The notes under the pieces are model-generated. The model ran no database searches. It was not told the DNA's origin and was given only the letters and a program-made list of their open reading frames with translations. A stretch of 12,358 bases of DNA, taken from Candidatus Firestoneibacteriota bacterium. Its GTDB lineage: Bacteria > Oederibacteriota > D2-FULL-39-29 > JBDRBU01. This document shows, one piece after another, positions 245-12,243 of the stretch; positions within the stretch are counted from its first letter, which is position 1, and each line of letters opens with the position of its first letter. The position numbers were made by a program, and so were the translations under genes. Where the stretch lies: positions 1 through 12,358 of the forward strand of contig JBDRBU010000116.1 of assembly GCA_043822305.1 (NCBI GenBank). Reading direction: 5' to 3'.

Positions 245-269
245 TTGACATATATATATATAGTATAAT
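245..269 (+). promoter_or_regulatory. Consensus -35/-10 pair with a (TA)6 microsatellite spacer, likely promoter of the 362-5841 operon
   Basis: TTGACA (245-250), (TA)6G (251-263, 13 bp), TATAAT (264-269); A-tract upstream. Confidence 0.55.
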
Positions 270-361
270 ACATAATATTTTATTTTTGATTTTAAAATAA
301 TTAATATTAAAGATTTAAGTAATCAGATTTCAAGGTTACAAAAATCTCAAGGAGGCGTAAA

Positions 362-1057
362 GTGTTTAGAAGAATAGTAATAGTTTTCGTAAGTATGTTT
401 CTTGTTTCGTTAGGATATAGCGAGGAAGTTACTAAAACCGATGATACCCAAAAGAAAATAGTTAAATACATGGAAGAAGTCCAGGAATATAATACGAAAC
501 AAATAAAAGATTTTTCGGCTAAACTTATTCAAAGTACTATGGGCGGTGAACCTTTGACCTCAATGTATTTTCAGAAAAATAATCCCGACGGGTCTATGTG
601 TATGAGGACGGAATCTAAAATATTTGATAAAAAAATTATTGTAATATTAAACAGCAAGGGAATGTGGAGCATTGACGGAGACAAGGCATATAAAATAGAG
701 TATATGGATAATATGAAGAAAGATGCTGGTCAAGAGATTTTTAAAAGCATTAAACCCGAAGACATTGAACAAGGTGAAAAGACATTTTCAAGGGAAGAAT
801 CAAAATATAAAGATATCCCGTGCTATTTGGTCAGTGTGAAAACTGTACTTTCTGAGGAGGCAAAAAAACTAAAAAAAGAAATGATAGATAAGTTTATGCC
901 AAAAGATATGAAAGCACTACTCAAGAATATCAATATGAATGATGTGATGCCGTTTGTGACAGAATCATATATAGGGAAAGAAGATAAGTTTATTTATAGA
1001 ACAGTATCTTACAATGAAAAGGAAAAGTCATATCAAAAACATCTTATGAAGATGTAA
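362..1057 (+). CDS. Secreted LolA-like/DUF4412-like protein; frameshifted near its 3' end (true end probably 1164)
   Basis: SD AAGGAGG at 349-355, GTG start, Sec signal peptide MFRRIVIVFVSMFLVSLGYS; beta-rich segments (MRTES, MWSIDG, IPCYLVSV, YIGKEDKFIYRTVSYN) typical of LolA-fold proteins; the expected C-terminal motif lies in another frame. Confidence 0.75.
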   Translation: MFRRIVIVFVSMFLVSLGYSEEVTKTDDTQKKIVKYMEEVQEYNTKQIKDFSAKLIQSTMGGEPLTSMYFQKNNPDGSMCMRTESKIFDKKIIVILNSKGMWSIDGDKAYKIEYMDNMKKDAGQEIFKSIKPEDIEQGEKTFSREESKYKDIPCYLVSVKTVLSEEAKKLKKEMIDKFMPKDMKALLKNINMNDVMPFVTESYIGKEDKFIYRTVSYNEKEKSYQKHLMKM

Positions 1058-1164
1058 AAATAAATGGTGGTCTAAAAGATGATTTATTTGAAGTGCCAAA
1101 GTCAATGAAAATTGAAGTAAAGAAAAATATATCAGATATGTTGAAGAATGTAAAAATTAAGTAA
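1021..1164 (+). other. Out-of-frame C-terminus of the 362 gene
   Basis: Frame starting at 1021 reads GKVISKTSYEDVKINGGLKDDLFEVPKSMKIEVKKNISDMLKNVKIK* (TAA 1162-1164). YxDVKINxGLxDDLFEVP is a typical LolA-like C-terminal motif, and the stop sits directly before the next SD. Confidence 0.8.
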
Positions 1165-1180
1165 AAAAGGAGGTGAAAAA

Positions 1181-1468
1181 GTGATGAAAAAGATAATAGT
1201 TGTTACTTGTGTTATTTTGTCATTATTAGTAATTCAAGTAGAACAGGTGAATGCATACACATATGAGGAATGTAAGAGTGCTTCAATTGACTGGCTTTGG
1301 GCACTTGCCGAAGCGGCGGCAGTTTGTTATTTGTGTGTTAGGTTTCCTACTCCTCCTGTTTGTCTTTCTTGTATTACGCTTGCTGAAAGAGCAGTTCGAC
1401 TGGAAGCGAGAGCGGATTATATATGCAGCAATGTTAATGATGAACCAGGGCCTCCTCCTTCTTCTTAA
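1181..1468 (+). CDS. Sec-exported cysteine-rich small protein (25-aa signal, 70-aa mature part with 6 Cys); candidate peptide precursor
   Basis: Strong SD AGGAGGTG at 1168-1175; GTG 1181 or ATG 1184; signal peptide KK + hydrophobic core + VNA cleavage site; mature YTYEECK...CYLC...PTPP...CLSC...YICSN...PGPPPSS. Confidence 0.85.
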   Translation: MMKKIIVVTCVILSLLVIQVEQVNAYTYEECKSASIDWLWALAEAAAVCYLCVRFPTPPVCLSCITLAERAVRLEARADYICSNVNDEPGPPPSS

Positions 1469-1509
1469 TTATTCTTATTAGAAGCAATGATGATATTTTT
1501 TGTAAATAC

Positions 1510-1562
1510 TGTAGATACTTACTGAACACCGTCATTATGGAGGTGTTTGGTGAGTATTTATA
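1510..1562 (+). other. Intra-operon RNA stem-loop (21-bp stem, 11-nt loop)
   Basis: 1510-1530 pairs with 1542-1562: 16 Watson-Crick and 5 G.U pairs, no mismatches on the + strand; no following U-tract. Confidence 0.8.
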
Positions 1563-1586
1563 AATTGATGCTAGGAGGTTAATAAT

Positions 1587-1853
1587 ATGAAAGCAATAAT
1601 GGTGACTATTATTGTCATAGTAGTTTCTATGTTATTGGGATTTTTAACAAGAAAACGTTTTAATAAAAAAAATGTAAAACGATCAAAAGGATACTTTATA
1701 TCTACGGCTATTATTTTTCTTATTGCAGTTATTACTGCGATTCAATATTTTAGAAATAAAGATTTGATGACTCTCGTTACTAGTTTATTCATGATATTTA
1801 TGACAATATGGAGTTTAATAAGCGGAATACAACTTCGTAAAAAAGGCGAATAA
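1587..1853 (+). CDS. Small membrane protein, about 3 TM helices, function unknown
   Basis: SD AGGAGG at 1573-1578; three hydrophobic stretches with a strongly basic loop (RKRFNKKNVKRSK). Confidence 0.8.
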   Translation: MKAIMVTIIVIVVSMLLGFLTRKRFNKKNVKRSKGYFISTAIIFLIAVITAIQYFRNKDLMTLVTSLFMIFMTIWSLISGIQLRKKGE

Positions 1854-1862
1854 TTTATTATT

Positions 1863-3404
1863 GTGTCTCATTATCTTTCAATACTAAGAATACAATTATT
1901 TTTTAAAACGCCCAATGAGTGCGGGGCGTTTCTTTCTATTGTTACATTTTTATTGATAGGCGTAATTCTTTATTTGAATCAAAAAAATTTGTTTGGTAAA
2001 TTATCAAAAAGTATTGTTTTGATATTAACCCTTCTGACTGTTCTGAGTGAATACCTTCTTGTTTTAACCTACTCTCGCGGTGGCTATATTGCTTTTGTTT
2101 TTACAGCTTTAATGTTTTTGTTGGCCGTGAAAAATGGCAAAGCAAAAAAACAATTAGTTCTTTTCTTAAGTGTATTTATTGTATTACTGATTCTTACACC
2201 AAAAGGGATAAGCCGAGTTGGATCAATAATTGCTTCTGATGATGCAATAGGAAACAGATTAATCCTCTGGAAAAGCGCGACAGAAATTACTTTTGACCAT
2301 TGGCTTTTTGGAACAGGTTTTCACTATTTCGGCGATACTTTCGTCGGTTGGTATCAACCGTTGGATATGTTTATTGATTATGCAAGCGCGGTTAATACTC
2401 CTTTGACGATTGGGGCTGGAGGAGGAATTTTCTTACTTTTCATATATCTTATGATAAGTTTTACCGCAATACTCGGACCAATCATGGAGAATGTAAAGAA
2501 AGAAAACGGAATAATCCTTGGTGTTGCTTTTTCTCAATTATCTTATTTTATTGCCGGTATTTCCAGCACTTTTATTCATTCCTTTTGGCTAAACATAAGT
2601 ATTGTAATTTTGTTGATAATTAGTTTTGCATATTTAATAAAATGTTGGTTTAAAAGAAAAGATAGATTAAAGGATATATTGTTAACTTTAAGGACTCCTT
2701 TTTTAATTTCTTTGATAATTTGTTTGGCTTTAATCGTTTTAGGTAGTTACTTTAATAGTGAAGCAAGCACTCACCACAAAATACTAAAGAAAATAGGCAA
2801 GAATAAAATAACTGTATATATCCTTACACCGGCAAAAGCAAAGAAAAAAGCAATAATTCTTTATACTTTTAACAATAAAAGCACATGTATTGGAAGAGAA
2901 GCAAGGAGAACTCTGCGATATCTTGCAGAAAAAGGATATATTGTCTTTACCCCGGAATTAACAGATATGGATCTTCACGGTTTGGCTGATTTAAAAGAAG
3001 TTGTTAACTTTGTTTTGGAGCAAAAGGCATATAGTGATTTTTCTGTAATACAAATGGGGCAGTCCGAAGGTGGGCAATATACTATCATTGCTGCGTCTGA
3101 AATATCAAACCCTCGTCTTAAAGCGGTTGTTTCAATAGGTGCCCCCGCAAAATGGCCATTTAAGGAAATGTCTCCTGAAAGATATATCGCAAATGTAAAG
3201 GTCCCAATTTTTTTACTGCATGGCAGTGAGGATTTGGTTTATGAAGTGGAAAACGCTTATATTCTGGAAAAATCCTGTAAAAATGCAAAGTCAAAATTGT
3301 TAGTCGTAAAAGGTGTTGCAAATTATTTGGAACCCAAAAGAAATGAAGCCATAGATGAAATTGACAAGTTTATAAATAAGGTATTAAAAAATGAAAAGAA
3401 ATAA
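1863..3404 (+). CDS. O-antigen ligase (Wzy_C/WaaL/O-OTase-like) membrane domain fused to a C-terminal alpha/beta-hydrolase domain
   Basis: Ligase-family motifs FKTPNECGAFL, LVLTYSRGG, RLILWKSA, WLFGTGFHYFG; hydrolase motifs YLAEKGYIVF, GQSEGG (S401), PIFLLHGSED (D457). Start uncertain because the GTG has no clear SD. Confidence 0.8.
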   Translation: MSHYLSILRIQLFFKTPNECGAFLSIVTFLLIGVILYLNQKNLFGKLSKSIVLILTLLTVLSEYLLVLTYSRGGYIAFVFTALMFLLAVKNGKAKKQLVLFLSVFIVLLILTPKGISRVGSIIASDDAIGNRLILWKSATEITFDHWLFGTGFHYFGDTFVGWYQPLDMFIDYASAVNTPLTIGAGGGIFLLFIYLMISFTAILGPIMENVKKENGIILGVAFSQLSYFIAGISSTFIHSFWLNISIVILLIISFAYLIKCWFKRKDRLKDILLTLRTPFLISLIICLALIVLGSYFNSEASTHHKILKKIGKNKITVYILTPAKAKKKAIILYTFNNKSTCIGREARRTLRYLAEKGYIVFTPELTDMDLHGLADLKEVVNFVLEQKAYSDFSVIQMGQSEGGQYTIIAASEISNPRLKAVVSIGAPAKWPFKEMSPERYIANVKVPIFLLHGSEDLVYEVENAYILEKSCKNAKSKLLVVKGVANYLEPKRNEAIDEIDKFINKVLKNEKK

Positions 3405-3984
3405 ACTGGAACAAAATTCAGAGTCGGGGTCGTCCCTGACCCCGACATTTAAATCTATGTTGATTGCCTTAAATATTGCTTTGTGCAGTATTGCGGTTGG
3501 ATTTCTCTTTAACTCCATAAATCCTTTAGGACTGGAGATAAAAACACCTGAAACCGTTTATAATAAAGTTATTATATTTAAAGACGGCAAAAGGATTGAC
3601 CCCGAAAAAGGAATTCTTATGTATGGTTACGCCGATGAATTGGAGTATCTCGATTTGCGTTTAGCAAGACGATATTATGACGGTGGGAAATCTGTTTTCA
3701 TTGATGCCAGAACTAAAGACGGTTTTGCGAACGGACATATAAAGGGTGCGATTTCGTTACCAGCTGGCAATTTTGAAGAAAATTATAATAATTCAAAATC
3801 TAAAATCGAGAAGGACTCTGCCTTAATCATATATTGCAGTAATCCTCTTTGTTCGTTGAGTGAGAGAGTAGCCGTACTGTTAAAACTAAAAAAACACAAG
3901 AACATTAAGGTACTCAGCAGTGGCTGGGGTGGGTGGGATGATGCGAAGTATCCGACGGAGAAGACAGGAAATGAAACGAAGTAA
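3391..3984 (+). CDS. Membrane-anchored rhodanese-domain protein with CxxxxC active-site loop
   Basis: VFIDAR, FANGHIKGAISLP, IIYCSNPLC, C-terminal GWGGW..KYPTE; N-terminal TM ending NSINPLGL; 14-bp overlap with the upstream gene. Confidence 0.9.
   Translation: MKRNKLEQNSESGSSLTPTFKSMLIALNIALCSIAVGFLFNSINPLGLEIKTPETVYNKVIIFKDGKRIDPEKGILMYGYADELEYLDLRLARRYYDGGKSVFIDARTKDGFANGHIKGAISLPAGNFEENYNNSKSKIEKDSALIIYCSNPLCSLSERVAVLLKLKKHKNIKVLSSGWGGWDDAKYPTEKTGNETK
3423..3446. repeat. Perfect 9-bp GC-rich inverted repeat (REP-like) inside the rhodanese 5' end
   Basis: GTCGGGGTC-gtccct-GACCCCGAC. Confidence 0.7.
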
Positions 3985-4414
3985 ATTATTTGAAAAATAT
4001 TTAACTAAGAATATTCTATTTGTTTTAAGATTGATAATAGGCATCTTATTCATCCTTTCAAGTTTTAATGATTTATACAATCCTGAATATTTTCGAACCT
4101 CTATATTAATGTATAAAATACTTCCTGTGATGTTGGCTTCTATTACGGCCATCGTTCTTCCATGGTTGGAATTTGTATGCGGAATATTAATTATCCTTAA
4201 TGTGCACACAAAAAGTAGTGCCTTAATATTATCCGTGATTTTGGTTGCTTTCATCGGTGCTATCTCGTTAAATCTGGTAAGAGGATATATTCACGATTGC
4301 GGATGTTTTAATATTTTCGGGTTTAAAGAGAATATCAGTATTTTCGTCGTTATCAGAGATATTGTGTTGTTGTGCTTTACGGTCGTATTAAGTATAAAGG
4401 GGGAGAAAAAATGA
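3971..4414 (+). CDS. MauE/DoxX-family redox-associated membrane protein (147 aa)
   Basis: LRLIIGILF, P..F..SI..Y..LP, LPWLEFVCG, DCGCF, RD motifs. ATG 3971 is preferred over the track start 3920, which would add an implausible leader overlapping the rhodanese. Confidence 0.88.
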   Translation: MKRSKLFEKYLTKNILFVLRLIIGILFILSSFNDLYNPEYFRTSILMYKILPVMLASITAIVLPWLEFVCGILIILNVHTKSSALILSVILVAFIGAISLNLVRGYIHDCGCFNIFGFKENISIFVVIRDIVLLCFTVVLSIKGEKK

Positions 4415-5841
4415 TAAAGAAAACTCTTATTTTAGTGTTATTAAATATAATAGTTGCTATTGGTTCTGATGATTTTACGGCAAAATACGGGCAATATGTG
4501 ATTGATACTGATTTTCCGAACAACAGGAAGGTTGTTGTGTATTATGCTGTCCCGATAAGAGGCGACAGAGTTCTTTCACTAATCGCGAGCAATATGGTTT
4601 TCTGTGCTCCATATGTGGGAGAGACAGAGTTTTTTAAAAGAAATTTTAATAACTATTTTGTGAAAAAACTTGGTTGTAGTGTGTTTTCTTTTGAGTTTAA
4701 ATATACTGAGGAGAATGCAGGAGACAGAAAAAAGTGGTATTATTTTAAAGAATCAGGTTGGCACGATTTAGCCCTGGAAGTTCAGAATAAATTGATACAT
4801 GATTATGGGCTTGAGAGAAGGAAAATAATTGTTGTAGGAGAGTCCGGCGGAGCAAGTATGGGACAGCAAATGGGTATATACTATCCGGACAAAATTGAGG
4901 CCGTGGCTGGTATTGGTGGTGGTTACTTTGACGAACCAAAAGTTAAATCTAATGTTGCCTGGTTGATGATAAACACCTGGGGGGATATCGCCATGGTTAA
5001 AAATGACGAATTTTGTAGAAACGCCGATGCTTTAGGTATGCAAGTTTTAAGAATACTCACACCACCCGTCTGGGACAAAAAAGGCGATGATAATTTTCAT
5101 CATATACCAAGCAATCTTGCGGAAAAATATGTCTTTGAATTTGTAAAAGGGATACTTGATTTAAGAAAGTATAATGGCGGAAAAGTCCCAATGTGTGAAA
5201 AGTGGCCGGTGAAGTATTCTTCCGAAGATAAAATCTTGTATTTCCCTTCGGAAGATTTTAAGAGGACATGGGAAAAACTGCCGCATAAATTTATAAGAGC
5301 GATGCTGAAGCCGTCTGAGAATAATGAAGTGGTGGAGTTTCCGGCTAAAGACGCTAAAAAGATAGTATTATTTTTACAGGATAAGAAGTTTTATTCCACC
5401 GTGCTTTTGGATAATGTCTATTATCTGCATGAACTCGGATATGATGTGGTTACCATAGATATTGAAATGGATATATATGATGTTTGTAAAAAAAGAATTA
5501 TTAAGGCACTACAATATTCTGTTGAGAAGTCGAAGAAAGAAGGCAAAGAACTTTATGCCGTTGGTTTTTGGGAGTCTGGGCTTACGCTTTTAAGTGAAGT
5601 GAGCAAGTTAAAGAAGTCCGAAGTTAAAAAAATCCTTATCTTTAATCCTCAAAGAAATTTATATTCGGAAGCGGTTAATGATTTTCCTTCGGGTTGTGAG
5701 TGTAATATATATTACACAAAAGATTATTGGGATGATAAGCCGATTACAGATAAAACCTGGTGTAAAGAAAAGGATTTGCACACAAAAAGTGATTTTGGAT
5801 ATAATTGGTTTAATTTTCTTAAAAACCAGATAAATAATTAA
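4411..5841 (+). CDS. Secreted protein with an alpha/beta-hydrolase domain and a second, degenerate hydrolase-like domain (476 aa)
   Basis: SD GGGGAG before ATG 4411, ATGA overlap with the MauE stop; signal-like MIKKTLILVLLNIIVAIG; VVGESGGA nucleophile elbow, INTWGD, FHHIP; second domain LHELGYDVVTID...YAVGFWESG. Confidence 0.8.
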   Translation: MIKKTLILVLLNIIVAIGSDDFTAKYGQYVIDTDFPNNRKVVVYYAVPIRGDRVLSLIASNMVFCAPYVGETEFFKRNFNNYFVKKLGCSVFSFEFKYTEENAGDRKKWYYFKESGWHDLALEVQNKLIHDYGLERRKIIVVGESGGASMGQQMGIYYPDKIEAVAGIGGGYFDEPKVKSNVAWLMINTWGDIAMVKNDEFCRNADALGMQVLRILTPPVWDKKGDDNFHHIPSNLAEKYVFEFVKGILDLRKYNGGKVPMCEKWPVKYSSEDKILYFPSEDFKRTWEKLPHKFIRAMLKPSENNEVVEFPAKDAKKIVLFLQDKKFYSTVLLDNVYYLHELGYDVVTIDIEMDIYDVCKKRIIKALQYSVEKSKKEGKELYAVGFWESGLTLLSEVSKLKKSEVKKILIFNPQRNLYSEAVNDFPSGCECNIYYTKDYWDDKPITDKTWCKEKDLHTKSDFGYNWFNFLKNQINN

Positions 5842-5867
5842 TAATTAAATAAATATGGTGTCTGTCC

Positions 5868-6260
5868 CTATTCACTTGTTTCTAATTGTTCTTTTGGGCC
5901 GGATGTAATTCTTAGAGAAACCCTTGCTTTATTATTATTTACCTCTATTAACTTTACTTCTACTACAGCAATATTGCTAATTACTTTTCTTAAATCTCTC
6001 GATTTTGTAACAGTGCCAAAACTCTTATATATTTGCAATACTATGGAATTAGAGTCATTTATTTTTGATAATTTAATTTCACCTTTAGGAACACTTTTTG
6101 ATTTTATCATCACAAATTTGCCTAATTCTATATCTAGTATAAGGGGGTTTTGAATTTCTTTTACAGATGTGGTACTTTTAAAAATTGGTCCTTTTATGTA
6201 TTTTTGATAGGCAAAATAAATTAACAGTCCTAGAATTAAAAGTATTATTAGTTTTTTCAT
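5868..6260 (-). CDS. Hypothetical protein with an N-terminal membrane anchor and a small beta-rich domain
   Basis: SD AGGAGG (6272-6267), MKKLIILLILGLLIYFAYQKY anchor, fills an otherwise empty gap and has its own promoter. Confidence 0.8.
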   Translation of the reverse strand: MKKLIILLILGLLIYFAYQKYIKGPIFKSTTSVKEIQNPLILDIELGKFVMIKSKSVPKGEIKLSKINDSNSIVLQIYKSFGTVTKSRDLRKVISNIAVVEVKLIEVNNNKARVSLRITSGPKEQLETSE

Positions 6261-6343: not shown

Positions 6344-8164
6344 ATGAAATATCTTAAAATAGTGTTAAGTATATTTGTTGTTTTTGTTATTGGATATTTA
6401 TTGTTTAAGGAAAATATCAAGGAAAGCAAGGGAAGTAAAGAAAGTAGGGAAAGCAAGGGAAGTAGGGAAAGTAAAGAAAGTAAAATAAAAGAAAGTTTTT
6501 TAAAACCGAAATTTGAGATGGCTACTTCAGATATGAAATTTGATTTTAAGAAGGATTTAGGAATTAAAAGTAAATCTAAAACATCATTAGCAGGTTCCAA
6601 ACCTGATTATAGTGTAAGCATAGCGCAAACTGGCAATATTTCTGGAACGGCTGTTTTACAGGATTCACAATTTAATGAAGGTATATGCATTTCTTTAGAA
6701 AAGACAGTTTACTCTACATATACAGATGAAAATGGGAAATATTCATTTCAGTTTTTACAAGAAGGTAATTATAATTTAATAGCCAGTATGTCGGAATATA
6801 TTTCTGAAAAGAAAGAAAATATAACTGTATCGAGTAGTAAAGATATTAAAATCCCGGAGATAGTGCTCCAGCCTAATTTTGATATGGCTTATCCAAAAAT
6901 CATTAGGGTAAAGCCAGAAAGGAATTCAAAAAATGTTCCTGTTCCAAATTCTTTTGGAGTATATGGGATGGAAAAAGAGATGGGCCGGACTGGATTTTGC
7001 CTGAGTTTAGATTTTAGCAAACCTATGAATATAGAAAGTGTAGAGAAAGGAATAAACTTTGAACCACCTTTGAATTACAACTTTCAATGGATTGGCAACA
7101 AAAGACTATTATTAAAAACAAATACTTCTTTGCCTGTTGATCCATTAAGATTAAAGACAACATATAAGATTTTATTTAAAGAGGGTATATCAGCCATTGA
7201 TGAGAAAAAGATGGTAGATTTAACTCCAATTGAGTTTAGTTTGGGAGGATTTAAAGTAGTAGAAACAATTCCTAAAAATAATTCAAGTAATCATCCGCCT
7301 CATAAAAGGATGTTCGAAATATTTTTTAATTCACCAGTTGATAGGAACACGGTTAATTTTGATACATTTTTAATATCTCCCAAAATTGATGGAAAGATTA
7401 ACTTCTCAGATACTAAATTAAATTGTATCTCATATTCTTCTGTTGAAAAGTTACCTTCAGATACTAAGTGGTTAATTACTTTAAAAAAAGATATAAAAGA
7501 TTCGTACGGTATTGGTTTAGATGAAGATTGTAATTTAAATTTTTTAACATCTCCTTTGAAAATTGCCGATGTTTGGCCAAAGGATAATGAAAAAAATGTT
7601 CTAACAAGTAGTTATCCATATATTTTTTTTAATACAACAGTAGATAAAGATTCTTTTAAGAATTCATTTGTTATTTTACCTGAAATAAAAGGAAATTTTG
7701 TCTGGTCAGCAGATAAAAATGAAGAGGAATATTGCAATTTTGTGCATAGTGATTATTTTAATACTAATACAATTTATAAAATTAGTATATCTGATAATGT
7801 TGTTGATCTATATGGTAAAAAGATGCAAAGACCATATAGTTTTTCTTTCAAAACTGAATCACCGCGGGTTAGTTATATGAGGCCTGATAGTGGGAAGGTG
7901 AATATAGAAACAGATACTGAGGTTAAATTAGTTTTTAATACTTTAATGGAACGAGATGAAACAGTTAAATGTGTGTCCATATTTCCATTAGAAGAAATTT
8001 TGTTTCATTGGGGTTCTGAAAAAAATTATGATATATTAAGTATTGAGCCAAAGCATAAATGGAAATCCAATACTGGTTATACCTTTGTCGTGAATAATAA
8101 AGCAAAGGATTTAAATGGTAATAGTCTAATCAAGTGGTTTAAAGGGGAGATATTTACCAAATGA
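6344..8164 (+). CDS. Membrane-anchored surface protein: carboxypeptidase-regulatory-like domain plus four bacterial Ig-like (Big_5/SbsA-type) domains
   Basis: N-terminal TM; TGNISGT...[19 protein letters not shown]; four repeats of the pattern P.......(N/V)V....I.F(S/N)..(M/V)(D/N)...T.Y.I......D..G......F.T. Confidence 0.85.
6422..6484 (+). repeat. Seven tandem 9-bp units (consensus GRAAGYARR) encoding [21 protein letters not shown]
   Basis: gaaagcaag ggaagtaaa gaaagtagg gaaagcaag ggaagtagg gaaagtaaa gaaagtaaa. Confidence 0.9.
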
Positions 8165-11118: not shown

Positions 11119-11481
11119 ATGCAAAAAGAAAAACGTATACATGAAAGAGTTTCGGTTGTTATGTCTGGAGTTAGGTTTAAGGATGTTGATGCTTTAGAAC
11201 CATCACAAATGCTTGGTGATATAAAAAATATTAGTTTGGGTGGAATATGTGTTGGGACTAATGAGGAAATAAAAGCTGGTGGTAAACTTAATTTGAGTTT
11301 TGTATTTCCTGATGGTAGAGAATTTTCTGACATAACCGGGAAAGTTATTTGGGTAAAAAGGAGTGATGAATCGAATTTAGCAGGGATTAATTTTTTAAAA
11401 TTAGGATTATTTCAAAGGATAAAATTATCAAACTCTATAAAAAGAATTATGACTTACTTTAATGTAAGATCAATATATTAG
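11119..11481 (+). CDS. Standalone PilZ-domain protein (c-di-GMP receptor)
   Basis: EKRIHERV (RxxxR), NISLGG ([D/N]xSxGG), GKVIWV, GINF. Confidence 0.9.
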   Translation: MQKEKRIHERVSVVMSGVRFKDVDALEPSQMLGDIKNISLGGICVGTNEEIKAGGKLNLSFVFPDGREFSDITGKVIWVKRSDESNLAGINFLKLGLFQRIKLSNSIKRIMTYFNVRSIY

Positions 11482-11542
11482 GAATACTTGATTGCAAAGC
11501 AATCAGAGTAGGAATAGTTGGTTACGAAAGTAACCAGACTAT
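11481..11542 (+). ncRNA. Tandem pair of homologous bulged hairpins (candidate cis-acting structured RNA)
   Basis: Units 11481-11510 and 11511-11541 differ by 6 substitutions that form 3 compensatory base pairs, plus one loop indel (AAA vs GAAA). Confidence 0.6.
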
Positions 11543-11553
11543 GAAAGAAAAAA

Positions 11554-11883
11554 ATGTTTAAAGAAGAAAAAAGGGAATATAAAAGAATACCAGTATATTT
11601 CAAGATAGCCAGTCTTAGCGTTCTTGAACCTTCTGAAAATTGTGGTTATATTAGAGATATAAGCGAAGGCGGAATGAAAATAGACGCTATTACAAGAATT
11701 GAATCAGGTATTACGATTCTGTTAAATTTTTCATTACCTGTTGATGATTTTGAGTTTAAAGATGTAGGTGCAATAGTTAAGTGGATAGCAAAAGGTAGAA
11801 TGGGGATAGAGTTTATAGATTTAAGTGAAAGACAAAGACAAGTTATAGAAGTATATGCAACTGAGTATGGCCATTTAAAGTAG
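11554..11883 (+). CDS. Standalone PilZ-domain protein (c-di-GMP receptor)
   Basis: EKREYKRI (RxxxR), DISEGG, AIVKW, MGIEF. Confidence 0.92.
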   Translation: MFKEEKREYKRIPVYFKIASLSVLEPSENCGYIRDISEGGMKIDAITRIESGITILLNFSLPVDDFEFKDVGAIVKWIAKGRMGIEFIDLSERQRQVIEVYATEYGHLK

Positions 11884-11940
11884 TCGCAGGCTTTTTATTT
11901 CTGTATCCGAGTATAACAAGTGGTACAGGGTTAGCCTGCG
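11880..11940 (+). repeat. GTAG-type REP-like extended hairpin
   Basis: GTAG (11880-11883), CGCAGGCT (11885-11892) pairs with AGCCTGCG (11933-11940); inner stem CTGTATC/GGTACAG with one G.U. Confidence 0.55.
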
Positions 11941-12003
11941 TGATTTATCAGGCTTTTATCCGCAAACTGTTACACGATTTGGCTTAATTTAGGATGATGA
12001 GAT

Positions 12004-12243
12004 ATGGATTGGATTCGAAAAATAAAAAGATGTTTTGTTAATAACTCAGTATTTTATACGAGACATGCTAAGTATGAGATGGAAAATGAAGAATTTGGTC
12101 GAATATTTGATGATGAGGTGTGCGAATCTGTTTGTAATGGAAAAGTTATAGAAAAATATCCAGAAGATAAGCCATATCCAAGTGTTTTGATATATGGAAG
12201 AACAAAAATTAATCGTTCTTTAGAGGCTGTCCCAAAACTATGA
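12004..12243 (+). pseudogene. DUF4258-like (putative toxin-antitoxin toxin-like) gene, C-terminally truncated
   Basis: FYTRHA..EM, NGKVIEKYPEDKPYPSVLIYGRT..NR matches the family; the usual PLHxV...ITVY ending is replaced by LEAVPKL*, read from an IS-like end. Confidence 0.7.

Follow-up and report, generated by a model that had tools for sequence, protein, structure and literature searches.

A gene cassette of Firestonebacteria that may mature a secreted, disulfide-stapled hairpin peptide outside the cytoplasm

When a small cysteine-rich peptide is encoded in a row of genes for exported and membrane-bound proteins, the question arises as to what these proteins do: is the peptide the substrate on which they act, or a mere passenger? 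Here this question is addressed for a stretch of 12,358 nucleotides (hereinafter, the window), contig JBDRBU010000116.1 (C116) in the assembly GCA_043822305.1 of a Candidatus Firestoneibacteriota bacterium (the source genome, G000; 2.15 Mb, 96.8% complete). An earlier note, drawn up from the sequence alone, had described a candidate operon in this window, and its outline holds: seven co-directional open reading frames (ORFs; 362-1057, 1181/1184-1468, 1587-1853, 1863-3404, 3391-3984, 3971-4414 and 4411-5841) occupy the plus strand, the last four overlap by 14, 14 and 4 bp, hydropathy analysis finds an N-terminal signal or a transmembrane (TM) segment in all seven proteins, in line with their claimed export or membrane location, and Pfam matches support the calls of a Wzy_C/hydrolase fusion, a rhodanese and MauE. 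With moderate confidence, we propose that the role of this cassette is to mature a secreted helical-hairpin peptide with disulfide staples and to release it, wholly outside the cytoplasm; the peptide would most likely be an antagonistic product that comes with its own protection. Below, C112, C56, C18 and C37 are other contigs of the source genome, G002 and G010 are genomes of the same order, L with a number stands for an individual locus, and P with a number for a representative of the ligase-hydrolase from the profile search.

The peptide and the recurrence of its cassette

The peptide precursor (1181-1468, plus strand) consists of a Sec signal and a mature part of about 70 amino acids with a net charge of -4; six cysteines are in the mature part and one is in the signal. 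The gene is preceded by a near-perfect Shine-Dalgarno (SD) sequence, AAAGGAGGTGA (1166-1176, plus strand), with a pairing energy of -17.7 kcal/mol vs -4 to -11.5 kcal/mol for the remaining genes of the window, so that the exported six-cysteine peptide with a very strong SD sequence stands as it had been described. From the single sequence, AlphaFold2 predicts a two-helix hairpin (H3-29/H33-58, pLDDT 93), and the cysteines are spaced as mirror images (6/57, 24/39 and 27/36, with sums of 63, 63 and 63; P = 0.0014 against random placement), a spacing that predicts three nested disulfides. Mirror spacing is significant in five of the nine peptides of this kind, for instance in L046 and L049 (P = 0.002 in each). 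Downstream of the gene, the predicted RNA hairpin is real: a 21-bp stem-loop at 1510-1562 (plus strand) has a z-score of -4.9, which was reached in 0 of 200 shuffles, and a strong stem lies 3' of the peptide gene in four of the seven loci tested (z from -3.7 to -4.5), in addition to a local stem in L051. A structured RNA specific to the cassette was ruled out, since the arms of the stem derive from a repeat dispersed genome-wide and the stems of orthologous loci differ in sequence; an Rfam scan returned no matches.

The cassette recurs. The source genome contains a second copy on C112 (rhodanese, LolA-like protein, cysteine-rich peptide, ligase, rhodanese, MauE, hydrolase), and the same gene order is found in G002 and in G010, where it is split across two contig ends. 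Altogether, four full copies were found in three of the 12 searched genomes of the order, two of them in the source genome, and a scan of 99 genomes of the phylum yielded full-length matches solely in the source genome, G010 and G002. The closest relative of the window cassette is L001, the same stretch as in G010. Between the window and G010, the enzymes are 61-71% identical and the LolA-like protein 50%, vs only 29% for the mature peptide and 23% for the 88-amino-acid protein encoded at 1587-1853 (plus strand), a hypervariable and optional protein with three TM segments by hydropathy (hereinafter, the 3-TM protein). Thus, the peptide and the 3-TM protein diverge faster than the enzymes, a pattern that would fit roles in antagonism and immunity, with the 3-TM protein as the candidate immunity protein. 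Downstream of the G010 cassette, genes for a small TM protein, a TPR protein and a MORN_2-repeat protein (L023, 3081-5357) possibly represent an immunity-like array.

In addition, a metagenome scan retained 74 loci, namely, 19 of the ligase family (18 by score plus the truncated L058) and 55 with ordinary ligases; L058 was at first a comparison locus, hence the 56 comparison loci (553 kb) in the peptide count. Rhodanese and MauE accompany the ligase in eight of the 19 family loci, a LolA-like gene or fusion likewise in eight, and five (L041, L042, L046, L049 and L051) combine LolA-like protein, rhodanese, MauE, peptide and ligase. In these five, the Sec-exported peptide of 79-114 amino acids has 6-8 mature cysteines, and its gene adjoins the LolA-like gene. 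The earlier note had suggested recurrence as a check on its proposal, and homologous blocks indeed carry a neighboring exported cysteine-rich small ORF: such an ORF stands directly beside the LolA-like gene in 9/9 loci that have LolA-like protein, rhodanese and MauE, whereas the same heuristic found it in 0/56 comparison ligase loci, none of which contains a LolA-like match either. Applied to the whole source genome, the heuristic picked four ORFs, two of which are the cassette peptides; its calls in L048 and at L053:9451 were judged spurious. In G010 and G002, the cassette has a lower guanine-cytosine content than its flanks, and in L041 and L045 a gene for a relaxase or an integrase is located nearby; a viral contig scan and a tblastn search of plasmids revealed no relatives, and TALE matches were rejected as sums of non-significant repeats. 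Taken together, these data identify the cassette as a real, conserved, patchily distributed unit. Within the cassettes of L049 (1264-2424, fused to MauE) and L051 (3288-3992), prepilin-like N-terminal domains were also observed.

The proteins around the peptide

The gene upstream of the peptide (362-1164, plus strand) encodes a Sec-exported LolA-fold protein and appears to be frameshifted near 1016-1021. The annotated frame ends at 1057, and the lost C-terminus is encoded in another frame, 1018-1164, which is 63% identical to the end of an intact orthologue of 266 amino acids and stops two bases 5' of the SD sequence of the peptide gene. The LolA-like gene reported previously is therefore present, but it appears not to be intact, which the earlier note had missed. 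The label itself holds at the level of fold, the predicted structure of the intact orthologue resembling LolA/DUF2092/RseB clusters in the Atlas (TM-score 0.54-0.63, predicted models on both sides), but not at the level of family, as there is no Pfam or NCBIfam match; the family alignment (A8) was built without the L047 candidate. Both full copies in the source genome appear damaged in the LolA-peptide pair, by the frameshift in the window and by a premature stop on C112, and the window copy is probably decaying. In the paralogous peptide of C112 (1642-1875), a premature TAG is found exactly at the mirror position of the second cysteine, and the last cysteine and a terminal Glu lie beyond it. 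Recoding of this stop codon was considered and rejected, since 206 of 1143 long ORFs terminate in TAG and none of the 42 tRNAs that ARAGORN lists for this genome is a CUA tRNA.

The presumed oxidase of the peptide is MauE (3971-4414, plus strand; Pfam 2.8e-22), a protein with four TM segments and a CGCF motif that, by family, is a DsbB-like disulfide oxidase. The CxC motif is invariant in 11/11 copies, and it is via this motif that MauE replaces DsbB in E. coli, according to the available part of a preprint (bioRxiv 10.64898/2026.03.05.709764). In the quinone-site region, the Glu of PWLE is kept, and at a position that is Lys in G002, in G010 and in the C18 copy, the window protein has Asp; this position may correspond to the conserved quinone-site Lys of the preprint. 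No match to DsbB or VKOR was found in the source genome, at its 96.8% completeness. The membrane-anchored rhodanese-fold protein encoded next to MauE (3391-3984, plus strand; Pfam 3.5e-14) has a CxxxxC loop and may be the partner of MauE in place of DsbA. The last gene (4411-5841, plus strand) encodes a Sec-exported alpha/beta-hydrolase with weak family matches (Pfam 0.036; polyhydroxybutyrate-depolymerase-like 5e-6), in which the N-terminal domain retains Ser (GESGG) and His and the C-terminal domain is degenerate; by sequence comparison, its family keeps GxSxG and a downstream His motif in 8/8 members and a candidate Asp in 6/8.

The largest protein (1863-3404, plus strand) combines a WaaL-like Wzy_C membrane domain (Pfam 1.7e-13; 51.1 bits vs a cut-off of 31.7) with a catalytically incomplete alpha/beta-hydrolase domain (DLH, 1.4e-7); its structural model has a pLDDT of 96 and a pTM of 0.92. 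A profile search yielded 131 representatives at E<=1e-30, and among the 20 family representatives looked up, one is from Puniceicoccaceae. The only match of the membrane-domain profile in the PDB is WaaL (7TPG, E 5.5e-8), with the arginine motifs TRG and RxxxW aligned. The arginines of the pyrophosphate site are invariant (R72 column, 117/117 representatives; R132 column, 121/121), and R9, N18, Y173 and the WYQP loop are conserved on the active-site side. In contrast, the catalytic His motif, present in 51/51 comparison ligases, is found in 0/16 family loci; a loose pattern for this motif also matched 11/147 representatives, at other positions. The role of this His is drawn from the 7TPG alignment together with the available text of PMC12800693, where it is the proposed base and where the Ala mutant of the corresponding residue of PglS, H324, is used as an inactive control. 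Since the ligase lacks the catalytic His of WaaL and of the O-oligosaccharyltransferases (O-OTases), ordinary O-glycosylation is unlikely, which weakens the role in modifying the peptide that had been assigned to it. In the tree, the family, itself defined by profile score, forms one side of a branch with 100/99 support versus the comparison ligases; four short family loci were omitted and every fourth representative was used.

The fused domain has an alpha/beta-hydrolase fold (Z 26.5, root-mean-square deviation 2.2 over 210 residues to 7qjn). In the window, the Ser of GQSEG is kept and Asn occupies the His column; the triad is intact neither here nor in most homologues, so that this domain probably does no trimming, contrary to the earlier proposal. 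In some cases, a structural alignment starts at residues 153-170 and extends into the domain, which suggests that the domain may sit against the periplasmic WYQP loop. Elsewhere in the family, the ligase is found in LolA-ligase-hydrolase (P0092, L044), MauE-ligase (P0131) and ligase-glutaredoxin (P0006, P0079) fusions, the membrane domain of the latter being one that we take to be CcdA/DsbD-like, and some members are fused to Ig-like (DUF1573-type) domains.

A proposed mechanism and its alternatives

From these elements, the following scenario can be envisaged. The strong SD sequence and the downstream stem-loop suggest that the peptide is probably produced in larger amounts than the enzymes, and it would then be exported by Sec. 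Outside, MauE and its rhodanese partner would likely form the nested disulfides, by analogy with the activity shown for other MauE proteins, and the LolA-fold protein, whose gene always adjoins the peptide gene and is sometimes fused to the ligase gene, is likely to bind the peptide and to present or carry it. The His-less ligase would probably use its retained arginines to bind an undecaprenyl-pyrophosphate-linked donor; more speculatively, it might transfer the donor group to an anionic acceptor for which a catalytic base is unnecessary (the C-terminal Glu or carboxylate of the cargo being the most plausible one), the dead hydrolase domain might serve as a cap for binding, and the ester might be released or edited by the secreted esterase. 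The 3-TM protein would provide immunity.

Several observations, gathered here and in the paragraphs that follow, weigh against this scenario. The four copies in Firestonebacteria are kin rather than independent, and two of them (G002 and C112) have no 3-TM gene. Mirror spacing is non-significant in four of the nine peptides (P 0.09-0.22). Of the 19 metagenomic family loci, 14 are without a small Sec-exported cysteine peptide, several of these ending at contig edges, and L038 and L045 appear to lack a cargo peptide. Furthermore, the same ligase clade accompanies other cysteine-rich exported cargo. L037 (923-5956) and L053 (1495-4286) encode ranthipeptide-type radical SAM enzymes and Tat-type cysteine-rich precursors, the repeat precursor of L053 having 33 cysteines in 427 amino acids, and L036 (3365-9549) encodes a radical SAM enzyme, PqqD, an ABC exporter and a 57-amino-acid ORF. 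[quoted passage not shown] A third, more distant locus of the source genome, on C56 (L139, 501-5520), combines a His-less ligase with a Sec-exported cysteine-rich protein of 205 amino acids that ends in PCDE. At the edge of this contig, the tail of a LolA-like protein may be present (probability 36%, E 4e-4), and the locus also encodes a secreted protein of helical-repeat-like type and an Ig-like protein.

The termini of these cargoes bear on the chemistry. Six of the nine peptides of hairpin loci end in Glu, whereas that of L046 ends in Glu-Gln; three other cargoes (C56, L053 and L036) also end in Glu, so that the total is 9/12 vs a background of 6.5-8%. Transfer to a C-terminal carboxylate would account for the loss of the base as well as for the terminal Glu. 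It is conceivable, if on balance unlikely, that the His-less ligase esterifies the C-terminal Glu or carboxylate of diverse exported cysteine-crosslinked peptides, either disulfide hairpins oxidized by MauE and rhodanese or radical-SAM thioether peptides, and that the LolA-fold carrier and the secreted esterase deliver and release the conjugate. The terminal-Glu pattern was noticed post hoc and the window peptide itself ends in PPPSS, both of which count against this idea.

What else could the peptide be? It matches no family in Pfam, NCBIfam, Atlas and profile searches: fold searches return generic helical hairpins only, the Atlas yields nothing above its bar, and the profile search returned solely the four input families. 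Typical bacteriocins are cationic, and yet the mature peptides are anionic in eight of nine cases (-2 to -10). An anionic amphipathic hairpin produced from a very strong SD sequence with a stem-loop behind it would suit an abundant structural or surface subunit (a filament, coat or adhesin) that the cassette folds and tethers to the envelope, with the LolA-fold protein as its chaperone in the periplasm. The Ig-like (DUF1573-type) partners and fusions and the prepilin-like genes inside L049 and L051 are in line with such a subunit, as is the glycosylation of exported proteins by Wzy_C relatives reported in the available text of PMC12800693. We nevertheless regard it as an unlikely explanation: the divergence of the peptide and of the 3-TM protein goes hand in hand and far exceeds that of the enzymes, the cargo types (hairpins, Tat-type radical SAM substrates and a 205-amino-acid protein) are unrelated, and the loci read showed neither an usher gene nor a secretin gene.

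The state of the ligase-hydrolase raises another possibility. The column of His313 holds His in 0/123 hydrolase-fused representatives (V/I/L/M/Q; Val in the window), the Ser of the fused hydrolase is retained in 8/125 and Ser together with His in 3/125, and the cassette contains no dedicated sugar-donor genes. Loss of the His is just as compatible with an enzyme that is dead. With both catalytic centers degenerate and the pyrophosphate-site arginines invariant, the protein might merely bind undecaprenyl-(pyro)phosphate or lipid II and, together with the hydrolases, protect the producer or export a peptide that is only disulfide-modified; the RHS fragments that adjoin a truncated ligase of the family in L039 can be cited in the same sense. 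However, the strong conservation of R9, N18, Y173 and the WYQP loop, and the terminal Glu common to unrelated cargoes, which suggests cargo recognition, make such a dead binder decidedly unlikely. The rhodanese, in turn, could betray a generic envelope module for glycan transfer, ester cleavage and disulfide oxidation that accumulates in mobile islands, in which case the small ORFs would be passengers or signaling peptides sensed by the LolA/RseB-fold protein. MauE is encoded in 88/99 genomes of the phylum, and a membrane-anchored rhodanese stands beside it in 29/29 fetched loci (L110-L138; G000:C18 14696-15797), none of which has a ligase gene or a LolA-like gene at a distance of up to 1.5 kb; the rhodanese-MauE pair is therefore a general module of the phylum, present in the window as an extra copy. 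The loop cysteine of the rhodanese is missing in 3/12 aligned copies, and two of these three loci have perfectly mirror-spaced six-cysteine peptides. Thus, of the dedicated disulfide handling that the earlier note had assigned to both proteins, the part of MauE is supported by the invariant CxC, the lack of DsbB and VKOR matches and the preprint, and the part of the rhodanese is weakened. A hydrolase paralogue on C37 without a cassette, the retention of ligase and hydrolases without a peptide in L045, and the RseB-type clusters among the structural look-alikes are further points for a generic module. Yet the adjacency of the peptide (9/9 vs 0/56), the fusions between cassette parts, the extra MauE copies in those genomes of the order that bear a cassette (3, 2 and 2, vs 1 in seven of the other nine) and the fact that the cassettes read contain neither a sigma factor gene nor a kinase gene render this explanation very improbable, and we retain the maturation of an antagonistic peptide as the preferred one.

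Surroundings of the cassette and known systems

Upstream of the cassette, a promoter-like site (245-269, plus strand) consists of TTGACA, a 13-nt spacer with (TA)6, shorter than the consensus, and TATAAT; in the orthologue L001, upstream of 8543, TTGACA and TATAAT are 15 nt apart, likewise with a TA tract. Changes in the number of TA units could tune the promoter, and a collapse in assembly is also possible. The genes to the right of 5841 (a reverse ORF of 130 amino acids, a Big_5 protein, glyQS, PilZ) are not found beside other cassette copies. A short repeat, ATGGTGTCTGTCCCTATT, is located at 5853-5870; its 12-nt core occurs 33 times in the genome, 23 times outside or at the edge of ORFs. 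The 130-amino-acid ORF (5868-6260), of no known family, is divergent from the gene for an exported protein of 606 amino acids (6344-8164) that comprises four Big_5 domains, with a tandem repeat of 9 bp at 6418-6482; glyQS is followed by two PilZ genes, both stand-alone, and by a DUF4258 ORF (11119-12243).

No description of the cassette was found in the open-access full-text literature, and it is apparently undescribed; it departs in a defining trait from every known family with which it was compared. If our proposal is true, more than 100 uncharacterized ligases (the 131 representatives) would have an acceptor chemistry necessarily unlike that of WaaL and the O-OTases, a route would open to precursors with signal peptides that leader-based RiPP tools would tend to miss, and the rhodanese would be a candidate non-thioredoxin partner in the recently described disulfide pathway of MauE.

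The individual parts resemble several well-known systems. The intact orthologue shares its predicted fold with LolA, DUF2092 and RseB proteins; however, the cargo of LolA in the Lol pathway is an acyl-lipoprotein, whereas the cassette peptide has a Sec/SPI-type signal with no lipobox Cys at +1, and some LolA-like proteins of the cassette are, unlike these relatives, TM-anchored or fused to the ligase. With the mau cluster, the cassette shares a four-TM MauE with CGCF. Methylamine dehydrogenase and MauD are encoded in that cluster, but both the dehydrogenase subunits and MauD are absent among the window ORFs, as the earlier note had said of the dehydrogenase genes. In the cassette, the partner of MauE would be a membrane-anchored rhodanese, a protein that goes unmentioned in the available part of bioRxiv 10.64898/2026.03.05.709764, and the accessible text of PMC7794033 places MauE homologues in candidate Streptomyces RiPP clusters without the gene set of the cassette. 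WaaL, PglL and PglS have in common with the cassette ligase the Wzy_C domain and the arginine motifs; compared with them, the cassette ligase has a fused pseudo-hydrolase and belongs to a separate clade, and relative to WaaL it has TxVN[DN] in place of HAHND and lacks some 130 N-terminal residues.

The whole is most reminiscent of the glycocins (sublancin, glycocin F, thermoglycocin). As described in the available part of PMC12457901, these are small secreted peptides with nested disulfides, and dedicated thiol-disulfide enzymes and a glycosyltransferase-type gene stand in one cluster, as they do in the cassette; there, the leader is cleaved by a C39-peptidase ABC transporter, and thioredoxin-like oxidoreductases and a SunS-type glycosyltransferase are employed. 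In the cassette, their place is taken by a Sec signal, by MauE and by a WaaL-like membrane protein, there is no sequence similarity, and the window peptide has no free loop Cys. SunS-type glycosyltransferases are cytoplasmic and depend on nucleotide sugars. Neither such an enzyme nor a C39-peptidase ABC transporter is encoded in the window or among the Pfam-scanned neighbors of the hairpin-peptide loci. The predicted hairpin and the mirror spacing of the cysteines, with the bonds themselves predicted, would be compatible with nested disulfides on a helix-loop-helix as in glycocins. Thus, with no part shown to be homologous, the glycocin cluster would be the closest analogue of the cassette.

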